Position numbers: made by a program. Below, in pieces: positions 30,001-36,000 of a stretch of DNA of 64,000 nucleotides; the first letter of the stretch is position 1; each line of letters begins with the position of its first letter. Source of the stretch: a virus (taxonomy: Duplodnaviria; Heunggongvirae; Uroviricota; Caudoviricetes); IMG/VR virus record IMGVR_UViG_642979322_000022; one strand, given 5' to 3'.

Positions 30001-33000
30001 GCGCCTTCAAAAACTGACCGAATTTTACTCAGAATACGTTGACCCAATAACGCGACAAAAATAATTCTTTATTTTACAAAACAATACCGCCGGAAGGCGG
30101 TTTTTTTTGCCTCTTGCGCATTCACAATGTTGACATATGTTCATCTTAAGAGAACAATATATCCCATCAAAGCACAACGGTGCGACAGGTCTTAGTTCCG
30201 CCCCCCCGGCGTTAAGGGCAAATGAGGTCAACATGGATACGCTCAATCTTGGCAACAACGAATCTCTGGTATACGGAGTATTCCCCAACCTGGACGGCAC
30301 GTTTACCGCGATGACGTATACCAGAAGCAAAACGTTTAAAACTGAAGCTGGCGCGCGTCGCTGGTTAGCCAGAAACACTGACTGATGAGGTTGACGATGG
30401 AATTTAAAGATTTACCAATGCAATTCCAGGAAATGGCAGCGAATATAGTTCGTTCCCAACTGGCGACTCTTGACCTGAGTACCGTAGAAAAAGAAACCAT
30501 CGACAATATATCCCATAATGTGCGTAATTCCTTTATTAAGCTGTACGAAGAGAATCTGAGTTCTGAAAACAAAGATGATTCACCTAAATTCACCCCACAC
30601 CCAGGTGGAGTGAGTGAGATTTATCATGAAACAATGGTTAAAGCACTACGTATGCAAATAGCCGAACTTGAACATAAATTAAATTTAGTTAGTAAGTGCT
30701 AAAATCAGCACAAGGCAAAAGGGTTGCACTTTCATCATAAGGGCAAACAAAAATGTGAGCATTAGCACCAACTGAATTAGCAATAGAAAAGGTTTGTTCA
30801 AGTATTTGATTCGCATTAAGCGTTGACTGAATAACGTATGCCCCTGGCAATAATTTATATTCAATGTCACCTTCATTAATCATCCTGGAGTATTTAAAAT
30901 TTGGCATCAGAGTCTCGAACTTTTTCTCCTGTTCCATTGTTGCTTCAAATAACTGCACATGGACATAATATCGATTGATTGATTTAGAGTGCATTTTATC
31001 CTCCATTAAGGGCTGGGTTAAAAATGGAGACCAACACGCTGTCACGTGTGGTCGTGCGCCGGACACGGATAAGAATCCGGTACTGACAGTTTACTGAAAG
31101 GCTCTTTCCCTGAAAAGTCAGGGCATAACACGAAAGCGCACGGCGAAATTGGTCTCTCTGTACGGTGTCGTTAAATTTAGTTCGACCGTGCGCTTCCGGT
31201 TGTGGCAATCCGCGAAATGGCGCGGCGGTAAGTGTGGCGGGGTTATTCTGTTCCCCCTTGAGGACGCCGGGTTGTCAGGTTGACCATACGCTTAAGTGAC
31301 AACCCCACTGCAACGCCCTCTGTTATCAGTTTTCTGGTGACGTTTGGCGGTATCAGTTTTACTCCGTGGCTGCTCTGCCGCCCTTTTTAAAGTGAATTTT
31401 GTGATGCGGTGAATGCGGCTCAGCGCACGCGGAACAGTTAAAACCAAAAACAGTGTTATGGGTGGATTCTCTGTATCCGGCGTTAATTGTTAACTGGTTA
31501 ACGTCACCTGGAGGCACCAGGCACCGCATCACAAAATTCATTGTTGAGGACGCGATAATGGAAACGTCACTACCAAACGTTAATACGTCTGAAGGGTGTT
31601 TTAATATTGGTATTCTGCTCAGTAACCGGGAGTTTACTGAAGACGCCATCAGGATGAGAAAATATGAGCCTTATCTTCTCAATGATAATTCCATACTCTC
31701 CAGAATTGCCCTTCTTGAACTTGGCATTTTCGGAGGGCAGCAGTGAGTTCAGCGTTTGCACTGATGATGACGGTTTTTCTTATAACAGGTGAGCCACAGA
31801 ATGTGATTACCGGAATTTATGCCAGTAAAGAATCCTGCCATCAGGCAAGAGACGAGCAAAAAATTTCCGGTGAATGTCTCCCGTTAAACAAAGTATCGCT
31901 GTACCTGAATAACGAAATACCGGCTGGATAACCCGCCAGCCGTATTAACGCCATACCCGTTGATTAAGCATGCCAGCAATAGCAGGGATTCGTACAACCT
32001 TAAAATAGTTATGAGGTTTATCAATGAGCACTGATAAAGAAGAAATTGCACTGTATTACGAAGCCAAAAATGACAAAGTCAGAAAACGCCTTGGGATTAA
32101 AGGCGGTTTTTACTGGCGCACAGCAAAAAAATTATCGGTTGCAATATCACGGGGTGTTGTCGCAATGGACGATGCTGGATTTGACGAAGAGGATTTCAAA
32201 AAACCTGTTCGCGTGAATTTGCCCATTGTTAATGACCTGCCGCCTGAAGGTGTGTTCGATACTGAATTCTGCAACCGCTATGAAAAAGGCGGAGAAGATG
32301 GCATCACAATGATATTTATAGCGCCTTCCCCCTCAGTTCAGGACAAACCAGCCAGCACTGACAATACCAACGTCAATGGCGAAGACATGGCTGAGATTGA
32401 GGATAATATGCTCCTGCCGATTTCCGGTCAGGAACTGCCCATTCGCTGGCTTGCGCAACATGGCAGCGAAAAACCGGTAACGCACGTTTCACGGGAAGAA
32501 CTTCAGGCATTACATATCGCACGAGCTGAAGAACTGCCTGCTGTTACTGCCCTGGCTATTTCCCACAACACAAAGCTGCTCGACCCGCTGGAGATTCGCG
32601 ACCTTCACAAACTGGTACGCGACACAGACAAAGTTTTCCCTAATCCCGTTAATTCCAGTCTGGGGTTAATGACTGCTTTTTTCGAAGCATACCTGGACGC
32701 TGACTATACCGATCGAGGTCTGCTGACAAAAGAGTGGATGAAAGGAAATCGTGTTTTACGCATCAGCCGCACGCCATCCGGCGCTAATGCTGGCGGAGGA
32801 ATTCTTACCGATCGCGGTGAAGGTTTTGTCCACGATGATGCGTCAGTGGAACGTGACGTTGCCGCTGGCGTTCTGGCCCGTTCAATGGACATCGATATTT
32901 ACAATCCACATCCGGCACACGCCAAACGCATTGAAGAAATCGTTTCAGATAATAAGCCGCCCTTTTCTGTTTTTCGTGACAAATTCATCGCCATGCCTGG

Positions 33001-36000
33001 TCACCTGGATTATTCCCGCGCGATAGTGGTTGCGTCCGTGAAAGAAGCACCAATTGGTATCGAGGCTACTCCCCACCGTGTTACCGAATATCTGAACAAA
33101 GTACTGACCGAAACCGACCATGCCAACCCTGATCCAGAAATCGTGGATATTGCCTGCGGTCGCTCCTCTGCTCCAATGCCGCAGCGTGTAACAAAAGAAG
33201 GAAAACAGGATGATGAAGAAAAACCGCAGCCATCTGGCGCAATGGCAGATGAACAGGCAACGACTGAAGCAGTGGAACCGGATACAACTGAACATAATCA
33301 GGACACGCAGTCGATGGATGCTCAGCCACAGATAAATTCTGTTGATGCGAAATATCAGAAACTGCGGGCAGAACTCCATGAAGCCCGGAAAAACATTCCG
33401 CCCCAAAATCCTGTCGATGCAGACAAATTACTGGCTGCCTCTCGCGGAGAATTTGTTGAAGGGATTAGCGACCCGAATGATCCGAAATGGATTAAGGGGA
33501 TCCAGACCCGCGATTCTGTGTACCAGAATCAGCCAGAAACGGAACAGAACGACCAGAAAGCGGAACAGAACAGCCCAAATACGCAACAAAACGAGCCAGA
33601 AACGAAACAACCTGAACCAGTAGTGCAACAGGAACCGGAAAAGATCTGCACCGCCTGCGGTCAGAGGAGTGGCGGCAACTGCCCTGATTGTGGCGCGGTG
33701 ATGGGCGACGCAACATACCAGGAAACATTCGATGACAAGAACCTGGTTGAAGTTCAGGAAGACGATTCGGAGAAAATGGAAGGCGCTGAACATCCACACA
33801 AGGAGAATGCTGGCAGCGCTCAGGACCACGCCAGCGATAGTGAAACTGGCGAGACGGCAGATCCCTTAATTACGGTGAACGGTCATCGCATTATCACATC
33901 CACCAGCAGGACGTGTGACCATCTAATGATCGACCTTGAAACCATGGGAAAAAATCCTGATGCCCCGATTATCTCAATAGGTGCAATATTTTTCGATCCG
34001 CAAACCGGAGATATGGGACCGGAATTTAGTAAGACTATCGATCTGGAAACTGCTGGCGGAGTCATTGATCGGGACACCATTAAATGGTGGCTTAAGCAAT
34101 CACGCGAAGCGCAATCTGCCATTATGACCGATGAAATCCCGTTAGATGATGCACTGTTACAATTGCGGGAATTTATCGACGAAAACTCCGGTGAATTTTT
34201 TGTTCAGGTCTGGGGAAATGGAGCCAACTTCGACAACACGATTTTGCGCCGTTCATACGAACGGCAGGGGATCCCCTGCCCGTGGCGTTACTACAACGAT
34301 CGCGATGTACGCACAATCGTTGAGCTGGGGAAAGCCATAGACTTCGATGCCAGAACTGCTATCCCATTCGAAGGTGAGCGCCACAATGCGCTGGATGACG
34401 CTCGTTACCAGGCAAAATACGTTTCAGCTATCTGGCAAAAACTGATCCCGAATCAGGCTGATTTTTAATGTTCAACCCCGGTCGTTGCCCACCAGCTATA
34501 GTGGCGGCGACCATGATTAGCGAACGACGCTCATGGCAAGACTTATTCTGCTCACTGAGTGGGCAAAAGAGGAATTCAGTGAACCGGTCCCTACTCCGAG
34601 TACGTTAAGTAAATACGCTAAAGCCGGAATGATATTTCCTCTCCCCAAAAAAGTTGGAAGACGCTGGCGAGTGGATCCGCAAGCTCGCTTTGTCGGAATG
34701 GTAAACAAGCCGGAGGTGATCGCCACAGATCACCCTGCTTTGAAGAGGATACTGGAAGATGGCGCGCCCGCGAAAATATAAAACCGATGTTCCGGGATTA
34801 TCTCCGTATTTTGACAAAAGAAATAACAAAGTTTACTGGCGTTACAGGCATCCCATAACAGGCAAAAATCACGGTCTCGGCAGTATTGACCAGAAACTGG
34901 CAGAAACTATTGCAGCAGAAGCGAACAGCCGTCTTGCCCGGCAGCAAATGGAACAAATGCTCAGTCTGCAGGAGAAAATTATTAGTGATACCGGCGGTTC
35001 ATCAACCGTTACCATTTTTCTGAATAATTACAGAAAAATTCAACAGGAAAGATATGAAAACGGCGAGATCAAACTCAACACGCTGAAACAGAAAGCGGCC
35101 CCTCTCAGGGTATTTGATGAACGTTTTGGCACCAGACCGTTAGATGCCATAACCGTAAAAGATGTGGTATCAGTACTGGAAGAGTACAAGGCCAGAGGAC
35201 ATAACAGAATGGGACAAATTTTCAGGAAAGTACTGATCGATGTTTTCCGGGAAGCTCAGCAAACGGGCGATGTCCCGCCAGGCTTTAACCCTGCAGAATC
35301 TGCAAAAAAACCGCAGGTACGGATATCAAGACAGCGACTGACTTTTGATGAGTGGATGATGATTTATAACGCAGCGGAAAAGGATGGTTACTTTTTACAG
35401 CGCGGTATGCTGCTGGCACTGATGACAGGCCAGCGCCTTTCAGATATTTGCAAAATGCAATTTTCGGATATCCGGGATGGTTATCTTCATGTCGAACAGC
35501 AAAAAACAGGAACCCGGATTGCCATCCCTCTGGCTCTGCGTTGCGATAAATTAAATCTCACCCTGGATGATGTGGTGTCATCCTGCCGCGATTGCGTTCT
35601 TAGTCCGTGGCTATTGCACCACCATCACGCGAAAGGGACAGCTAAGCGCGGCGGGATGGTTAAGCCAGCAACATTAACCGTTGCATTTAAAAAAGCCCGG
35701 GATTCTGTGGATTACAACTGGCGTGCTAATGGCACCCCACCCTCTTTCCATGAGCAGAGATCTTTATCAGAGCGATTGTTCAGAGAGCAGGGGGTTGATA
35801 CCAAAATTTTGCTAGGCCATTCGAATCAAAAAATGATCGATATTTACAACGACGCACGCGGTAAGGAATGGAAAAAACTGGTCATTTGATGACCAGTTTT
35901 GCAGAGGGGTTTTGCAGAGGTTTTGCAGAGAAAATTAAAAACGATATCCTGCGGAGAACATAAACACCCACGGATCCAGTCGTACCGAGTCTTTCACGGT

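Follow-up and report, generated by a model that had tools for sequence, protein, structure and literature searches.

A RecE-type N-terminal scaffold carrying a predicted DEDDh 3′-5′ exonuclease head in place of the RecE nuclease and RecT in an Escherichia coli O157:H7 lambdoid prophage

The 64,000-nucleotide (nt) stretch of viral DNA analyzed here (IMG/VR record IMGVR_UViG_642979322_000022; hereafter, the window) carries an Escherichia coli O157:H7 lambdoid prophage of the CP-933P type, integrated at ompW. The gene that precedes its excisionase and integrase genes encodes an 814-amino acid (aa) protein, and we found that it is a mosaic member of the RecE family: about 617 residues of RecE are kept, and the output unit has been swapped, such that a single DexA/Rv2179c-like DEDDh head replaces both the PD-(D/E)XK 5′-3′ nuclease head and the separate RecT annealase.

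The open reading frame (ORF) is uninterrupted from its ATG to its stop codon, as determined by ORF calling on the window (Table 1). The motifs quoted in the original prediction (LMIDLETMG at residues 634-642, VWGNGANFD at residues 729-737 and a third one at residues 787-797) were all located in it. A Pfam analysis returned two domains above threshold, Exonuc_VIII (PF06630) and Rv2179c-like (PF16473). In public records the protein is labeled 'exonuclease', '3′-5′ exonuclease' or 'exodeoxyribonuclease VIII', and one database names it 'Exodeoxyribonuclease VIII encoded by cryptic prophage CP-933P', in agreement with the statement in the original prediction that similar ORFs of enterohemorrhagic E. 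coli (EHEC) prophages are labeled exonuclease VIII. Several E. coli O157:H7 chromosomes match this region of the window at 100% identity. A search for full-length homologues returned only sequences that were at least 98% identical; the diversity described below was taken from a library clustered at 50% identity and from a genome scan.

The nature of the C-terminal head was deduced from profile, fold and motif matches. PF16473 aligned with residues 633-804 over positions 2-177 of the 177 in the model (E 2e-67; 226.7 bits, with a gathering threshold of 27), RNase_T gave a weak Pfam match over the same stretch, and the sole match among PDB sequences was the T4 DexA exonuclease (8KEL/8KEN, E 1.6e-6). 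No PDDEXK or DUF3799 match was found in the 814-aa protein, whereas RecE of Rac-SA53 does match DUF3799. The AlphaFold2 model of residues 604-814 had a mean predicted local distance difference test (pLDDT) score of 80, with a core above 90. In Foldseek searches with this model the best match was again T4 DexA (E 6e-11, template modeling score 0.66), followed by RNase T, oligoribonuclease (Orn) and REXO2 (~1e-7). Residues D637, E639, D737, H787 and D792 align with D7, E9, D119, H186 and D191 of DexA, which accounts for all five DEDDh catalytic residues, and these are kept in 17 species-level homologues, with the exception of one D-to-G and one D-to-E substitution. Therefore, the head is a DEDDh exonuclease and not a PD-(D/E)XK enzyme, and the DnaQ-like character that had been proposed for the C-terminal ~200 residues was confirmed by both profile and fold searches. 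By the same three kinds of evidence the protein is a member of the DexA/Rv2179c-like family. With E ≤1e-3, this very large family comprises 12,178 clusters (50% identity), mostly of free-standing proteins of 180-200 aa. A 3′-5′ polarity and a DNA substrate are predicted for the head from these relationships.

An RNA-directed function has to be considered here, in which the head would trim RNA 3′ ends, for instance in the maturation or turnover of operon transcripts (e.g., DicF) or of host RNAs. It would be in keeping with the exoribonuclease name of PF16473, with the structural neighbors that come after DexA (RNase T, oligoribonuclease and REXO2), and with the presence of DicF in the same operon. 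However, the closest solved relative, both by sequence and by fold, is a DNA exonuclease, DexA; RNase T itself acts on DNA 3′ ends, as stated in PDB titles; and the fusion to a DNA-recombination scaffold, where it replaces a DNA nuclease, argues for a DNA substrate. We consider an RNA-directed role improbable.

The N-terminal region is homologous to the noncatalytic part of RecE, as originally predicted, but this homology extends over residues 1-617 rather than ~100-560. The NCBIfam model NF007259 (exodeoxyribonuclease VIII equivalog) aligned by its positions 1-603 of 877 with residues 1-617. The score, 1092.7 bits, fell short of the cutoff of 1269 because the C-terminal third of the model was unmatched. 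The RecE-specific N-terminal domain PF06630 was detected at residues 56-189 (E 4e-34). When compared by BLASTP with RecE of Rac-SA53, residues 58-617 aligned, with 62% overall and ~90% from residue 225, and no similarity was detected beyond residue 617. The nuclease domain of RecE comprises residues 564-866, and the part N-terminal to it is termed a domain of unknown function (review, PMC11611040); therefore, the breakpoint lies in the linker just before the nuclease domain.

An AlphaFold2 model of residues 1-420, built with 59 aligned homologues (mean pLDDT 79), revealed an α/β domain and a helical domain, the latter with a pLDDT of ~90 over residues 130-388, and low-confidence segments (pLDDT <50) at residues 100-121 and 390-420. 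The ~600 N-terminal residues are homologous to those of Rac RecE, with up to ~90% identity over residues 225-617, including a zinc ribbon and the motif at residues 475-489 (Table 1). The differences from the Rac system are the DEDDh head in place of the PD-(D/E)XK 5′-3′ nuclease and the lack of recT downstream.

As revealed in Table 1, the host prophage is a lambdoid prophage of the Rac/Qin type, and the exonuclease gene is the last cistron of its DicA-type-repressed dicB (early-left) operon. Along the + strand the order is repressor, ydfA, two small hypothetical ORFs, DicF, dicB, ydfD, exonuclease, xis, int and truncated ompW. The dicB-type operon (ydfA, DicF, dicB and ydfD) is intact, and the same operon is known in the Qin prophage of E. 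coli K-12. In Rac-SA53 the equivalent slot is occupied by recE, recT, ralR and ydaC, followed by xis/int. The same gene order, ending in an 813-823-aa 'exonuclease' and xis/int, was observed at three further E. coli prophage sites (ompW of another strain, a tRNA-Ser gene and rspB) and in phage vB_EcoS-640R1, so that the operon position is shared by four attachment (att) sites and a phage isolate. Across the whole prophage, the Prokaryotic Genome Annotation Pipeline (PGAP) named no RecT, Bet, Erf or Gam, and a Pfam scan of the small early-left ORFs agreed. The absence of an annealase between the early-left small ORFs and xis/int, as claimed in the original prediction, was thus upheld: only DUF1391, the two hypothetical ORFs, dicB and DUF1482 lie between the repressor gene and the exonuclease gene, and xis follows after 64 nt. 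The promoter and terminator scan around the gene yielded nothing above the shuffled background that would point to a promoter of its own.

Table 1. Features of the exonuclease gene, of its protein and of the surrounding early-left region (window positions; res, residues of the 814-aa protein; HTH, helix-turn-helix)
Feature	Position	Strand	Evidence or remark
cro-like gene	29297-29572	-	divergent from repressor gene
DicA/CI-like HTH repressor gene	29675..30064	+	head of leftward region; ORF list, PGAP
ydfA-like DUF1391 gene	30137..30385	+	first of dicB-type operon; PGAP, Pfam
DicF small RNA, full-length	31332..31383	+	Rfam RF00039, 75 bits
dicB cell-division inhibitor gene	31558..31746	+	PGAP on identical record
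ydfD-like DUF1482 gene	31743..31931	+	adjoins exonuclease gene upstream; PGAP, Pfam
Complete ORF, 814 aa, RecE-N scaffold and DEDDh exonuclease fusion	32024..34468	+	from ATG to end of stop codon; PGAP WP_000102174.1 'exonuclease'
N-terminal α/β domain, res 1-98 (model: res 5-98)	32024..32317	+	AlphaFold2 pLDDT ~85; overlaps PF06630
Helical core, conserved, res 130-388	32411..33187	+	block R..SG.NAGGG..TDR ... MDFDIYN ... PG.LDYSRA invariant
Acidic, Gln-rich linker, res 389-617	33188..33874	+	unconserved between genera; res 390-420 low-confidence/disordered; model ends at res 420
Motif in linker, res 475-489	33446-33490	+	common to Rac RecE; present in Klebsiella relatives too
CxxC-x7-CxxC zinc ribbon, res 542-556	33647-33691	+	common only to E. 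coli-lineage RecE, including Rac RecE
DEDDh 3′-5′ exonuclease domain (predicted), DexA/Rv2179c-like, res 618-814	33875..34465	+	Pfam, PDB 8kel, Foldseek
Chi site GCTGGTGG, 25 nt past RecE-homology breakpoint	33900..33907	-	+ strand codes Ser626-Thr627-Ser628
Chi site in exonuclease-xis spacer	34489..34496	-	Chi scan
Excisionase gene xis	34533..34781	+	64 nt past exonuclease stop; slot of recT in Rac; PGAP, Pfam
Integrase gene int	34759..35889	+	followed by truncated ompW (attachment site); ORF list, PGAP

To analyze the relationship between the type of head and the presence of recT, two conserved core peptides were searched for in a single genome of each species. The scan yielded 66 Enterobacteriaceae loci, which were taken with 8-kb flanks and classified by phmmer. 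A PD-(D/E)XK head was present in 37 ORFs, and in 32 of them recT was immediately downstream by phmmer. The other five were four K-12-type loci, with a RecT of a different sequence type, and one locus at a contig edge (L049); in L012, a K-12-type locus and the only one of the five that was checked, the downstream ORF matched Pfam RecT. The DEDDh head was found in 17 loci, and recT in none of them, anywhere in the locus, by phmmer. In 7 loci the core was joined to a different, non-nuclease C-terminus, and the remainder were a handful of truncated, split or contig-edge ORFs. Therefore, the alternating unit is the PD-(D/E)XK head together with recT on the one hand and the DEDDh head on the other. 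With an equivalog score under the cutoff, no PD-(D/E)XK head and no RecT partner, the 814-aa protein is not RecE in function.

The flanks of 16 DEDDh loci were also scanned with Pfam. From the repressor to the fused gene there were 44 ORFs with a length of ≥100 aa, which matched only HTH, Rrf2, YdaS/YdaT and DUF families, and the 101 further ORFs of at least 130 aa matched replication proteins (DnaT, lambda P and IstB/DnaC-like); among the matches listed for these 145 ORFs there was no annealase family. The integrase gene was directly downstream of the fused gene in all 16. Neither downstream of the gene nor in the early-left operon was an annealase gene detected, here or in the 16 species-level relatives, so that the earlier proposal of a nuclease lacking a RecT/Bet partner held in the relatives as well. 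The Rrf2 regulators, which account for 8 of the 44 ORFs in these non-E. coli loci, are ~120-165 aa long and lie at locus positions ~6000-7300 (e.g., L018, L019, L020, L028 and L036); they have no counterpart in the window.

Members of the third class (L021, L026, L062, L063, L065 and L072) are 566-635-aa ORFs that start near locus position 7300, or at 523 in L065, and lie directly before xis/int. They combine the RecE-type core with a conserved C-terminus (ALNDLISGRT..MGKEEAEGVV.CTGHL...) that has no Pfam match and no nuclease motif. RecE relatives without a nuclease domain, named 'RecE-2', have been noted in lambdoid phages in PMC12315714 (Zheng, Casjens, Davidson, Amundsen & Smith 2025), to which the 7 loci with a non-nuclease C-terminus probably correspond.

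In other genera, among long proteins of the 50%-cluster library, the scaffold is 25-40% identical and the head 55-62% identical, and the fusion is retained. It occurs with intact catalytic residues in at least 17 species and at least 10 genera, as well as in isolated phages. Judged by these comparisons, the fusion is an old, selected and conserved architecture across the Enterobacteriaceae. The gene might also be evolutionary debris, left without a function after illegitimate recombination in a prophage undergoing decay: in draft as well as in complete genomes, many copies are split by frameshifts or insertion sequence (IS) elements, and the prophage of the window resides in a strain with many cryptic prophages. 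Such an origin is, however, very hard to reconcile with catalytic residues that stay intact in so many species while scaffold identity is low, with the isolated phages, and with full-length ORFs at several att sites, and this conservation effectively refutes it.

The prevalence of the fusion was measured in 5426 complete E. coli genomes, counting matches with at least 80% probe coverage. A 401-nt probe across the junction was found in 4020 genomes (9005 places) and the DEDDh head alone in 4048 (8157 places, with as many as 7 in one genome); the corresponding figures for the nuclease head of K-12-type RecE were 1730 genomes and 1827 places. The DEDDh fusion is thus the majority form in E. coli, where it outnumbers K-12-type RecE, and is no rare EHEC oddity. 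IS-disrupted copies of the fused gene exist. E. coli DEDDh proteins of 183 aa that looked like stand-alone versions of the head turned out to be either parts of fused genes with frameshifts or ORFs truncated by the end of a contig.

The kinship of the head with DexA raises the question of phage exclusion. DexA and the head share their fold and all five DEDDh catalytic residues, at 21-27% identity; DexA is a free-standing protein of 227 aa, with extra loops, from a virulent phage, whereas the head is the C-terminal part of an 814-aa protein of a temperate phage. According to a 2025 paper, a bacterial DexA homologue, EcD (named 'HREX'), protects E. coli from T4 and degrades T4 DNA that contains 5-hydroxymethylcytosine (5hmC), whereas unmodified DNA is not degraded; EcD is defined by an Ala at the position of DexA D90, the tetramerization Asp (PMC12153337). 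EcD and the window protein share the DexA family, the E. coli host and a predicted 3′-5′ DNA exonuclease activity, but EcD appears to be short and separate, and it has Ala at the D90 position; by alignment, the window protein has Asp there, and it is fused to a RecE scaffold. The termini of EcD (GenBank HAK9828821.1) were taken from the supplement primers: it starts with MIDTET and ends with TIPETYD (PMC12153337). The 3′ primer had no exact match in the viral and metagenome contigs scanned, and none of the proteins retrieved matched both ends.

By analogy, the head could degrade modified (e.g., 5hmC-containing) DNA of T-even phages, spare host DNA, and so protect the lysogen or the induced cell. 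EcD, a member of the same family, does act on the T4 genome in this manner (PMC12153337), and three quarters of E. coli genomes keep an intact fused gene, often in several copies each. Its operon neighbor DicB has been reported to protect against some phages. On the other side, the operon lies behind a DicA/CI-type repressor and so is probably off in lysogens; PADLOC models gave just a weak generic DEDDh match; EcD appears to be a separate, stand-alone protein; and both the RecE scaffold and the alternation with RecE/RecT point to a role in phage DNA metabolism. The position opposite DexA D90 is a nearly invariant Asp in the fusion family and Ala in EcD, a tentative argument at 27% identity of the alignment. 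Of the two DexA residues proposed to read 5hmC, W152 aligns with Tyr756, at a position that is variable within the family, and the equivalent of D169, in a loop stretch (IDFDA), is aligned ambiguously. We consider an exclusion function unlikely, but if the head did exclude phages with modified DNA as EcD does, the gene would be among the most widespread prophage-borne defense genes in E. coli.

Chi sites were also counted. The window contains 17 Chi sites when 2.5 are expected, a number that was reached in none of 100 shuffles. All 17 lie in the prophage part, between 8.1 and 34.5 kb (8159-34496), with 14 of them on the late-gene strand, and the 28 kb that follow the prophage on the right (36000-64000) are devoid of Chi sites. 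In early regions of ~9.5 kb, DEDDh-type loci carry 4.6 Chi sites on average versus 2.4 in RecE+RecT-type loci (Mann-Whitney p = 0.002). According to a 2025 survey of 325 lambdoid genomes (PMC12315714), oriented Chi sites are abundant in those phages that lack a recombination module, and RecBCD is of benefit to these phages. The prophage, which by PGAP over its whole length and by Pfam over its early-left ORFs encodes neither an annealase nor a RecBCD inhibitor, fits this class with high Chi density and no Rec module, as it is described there.

In the window, the segment coding for the head is bracketed by two Chi sites (Table 1). The one near the junction was found at the identical position, 568 nt before the stop codon, in every E. 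coli-type fused gene checked (L002, L007, L008, L009 and L016), and a minus-strand Chi site is present 570-820 nt before the stop codon in 11 of 16 loci from other genera; the canonical recE genes of L004 and L012 have no such site. The junction Chi could mark a point of module exchange, or could merely follow a conserved peptide.

Taken as a whole, these data suggest, with about an even balance of confidence and doubt on our part, that the protein is a DNA 3′-end trimming enzyme which acts at the time of induction and is targeted by its RecE scaffold, in phages that use the RecBCD and RecA proteins of the host. The gene would be silent in the lysogen and would be transcribed together with dicF-dicB-ydfD upon induction or infection. 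The RecE-type scaffold would then bring the enzyme to the target or partner of RecE, presumably linear double-strand DNA ends, where the two-metal DEDDh head is predicted to remove nucleotides from DNA 3′ ends. The protein might thereby trim 3′ ends or 3′ tails, or salvage broken DNA as DexA does, and strand exchange would be left to the host RecBCD-Chi-RecA pathway. We propose that, unlike RecE, it does not build 3′ tails for annealing, because phages of this type lack both an annealase and a RecBCD inhibitor and have many Chi sites in the correct orientation. In this model, the polarity, the DNA substrate, the targeting by the scaffold and the link with RecBCD are all inferred rather than demonstrated.

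Several points weigh against this proposal. The Rv2179c-like family includes the exoribonuclease Rv2179c, from which its Pfam name is taken, so the DNA substrate is putative. Expression restricted to induction is suggested by the position in the operon, and the promoter scan was uninformative. Fold searches with the scaffold gave no match, and the role of this region is obscure even in RecE (PMC11611040). The enrichment in Chi may reflect long residence in the chromosome, a caution that PMC12315714 voices for cryptic prophages. It could also be accounted for by coding-strand bias, as the shuffles ignore codon usage; moreover, RecE+RecT-type loci share the Chi orientation bias and are not depleted in Chi, and the difference between locus types is just twofold. 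In general, 3′-5′ exonucleases depress recombination (PMC12315714), so a positive role in recombination is not obvious. Finally, our literature search retrieved no description of the fusion or of its alternation with RecE/RecT, and no experiment on this protein or a close relative.

The position of the gene also allows a different reading of its activity. The head could resect the 3′ ends of both strands at double-strand breaks or genome ends, leaving 5′ overhangs that anneal spontaneously or with host factors, so that single-strand annealing would proceed without an annealase; this seems rather unlikely to us. We find it just as doubtful that the protein would then be a self-sufficient recombination or end-joining function with a polarity opposite to that of RecE/RecT. 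The gene does occupy the exact recE-recT slot of Rac, and in full-length RecE the scaffold common to both proteins enhances linear-linear recombination (PMC11611040, citing Fu et al. 2012). In addition, XthA (exonuclease III), a 3′-5′ exonuclease of E. coli, makes cohesive 5′ overhangs and supports the in vivo joining of linear DNAs without a phage annealase (PMC6379578). XthA differs in being a host housekeeping enzyme, and the likeness is a mechanistic analogy only. Its fold, that of the apurinic/apyrimidinic endonuclease family, is unrelated. Furthermore, the main substrates of DEDDh enzymes of the DexA, RNase T and Orn types are single-stranded 3′ ends or short oligonucleotides, and these enzymes do not act processively on duplex DNA, which weighs against annealing of this kind. 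The Chi richness of the phages that carry the gene suggests reliance on RecBCD, and nearly all recognized lambdoid Rec modules include an annealase, according to PMC12315714.

Beyond the 3′-end trimming model, a more general and more speculative view, which we put forward only tentatively, is that the RecE N-terminal region is a modular platform for delivery to DNA ends, with interchangeable heads: PD-(D/E)XK with RecT, DEDDh alone, or a non-nuclease one. The DEDDh version would then serve annealase-free end processing with the host RecBCD/Chi system, E. coli prophages would carry it as their predominant 'RecE', and the junction Chi may mark the exchange point.

Part of this is already known: the domain combination is in databases, the gene is annotated in thousands of genomes, and DnaQ-type genes near int are in print. 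In PMC12315714, DnaQ-like 3′-5′ nuclease genes are placed in lambdoid early-left operons, usually adjoining int and outside recognizable Rec modules. That paper sets these genes apart from the Rec module, and its main text describes neither a fusion of the RecE scaffold to DnaQ, nor the alternation with RecE+RecT, nor a prevalence. As phage mosaicism the fusion is unsurprising. RecE/RecT is the workhorse of recombineering, yet the role of the first ~600 residues of RecE has remained obscure for decades. Here the same scaffold is used naturally with a nuclease of predicted opposite polarity and with no annealase, a natural experiment that makes the role of the scaffold testable independently of the nuclease head. 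The fusion is also a candidate explanation for the handling of DNA ends in Chi-rich lambdoid phages without a Rec module. The label 'exodeoxyribonuclease VIII' is misleading, as it implies a 5′-3′ recombination nuclease, which the window protein cannot be. What is probably the most frequent 'RecE' of E. coli is misdescribed by its usual annotation.

Some observations concern the surroundings of the gene and of its relatives. The K-12 Qin pseudogene ydfE, which lies in the same slot after dicB-ydfD, was considered as a truncated copy and discarded, since BLASTP revealed no similarity. A gene for a DnaC/IstB-like replication ATPase (27165-27905, - strand) is an intact 246-aa ORF in the window; PGAP calls the corresponding gene frameshifted in the record of strain 2571, which is 100% identical to the window over 29600-36000, a discrepancy that may lie in the start or in the annotation. 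Immediately beyond the integrase end of the prophage there are type III secretion effector genes (DUF1076/NleG-like, EspM1 and NleG) at 37189-37698 (- strand), 39346-39936 (- strand) and up to ~41 kb, in a region of 38-44% GC with interspersed IS remnants. The defense domains KwaB (Kiwa), SAVED and RexB occur singly in the phage flanks of some related loci (e.g., L016, 255-1280, - strand).

In Pantoea osteomyelitidis (L041), a 694-aa relative (7497-9581, + strand; phrog_2489 'exonuclease') has a RecE-type core and a different C-terminus, assigned to phrog_7838. This C-terminus looked annealase-like by eye, but it had no Pfam or PDB sequence match, and we do not claim it as an annealase. The relative is followed by a Sipho_Gp157 gene (9548-10141, + strand), of a family that is found beside phage recombinases.

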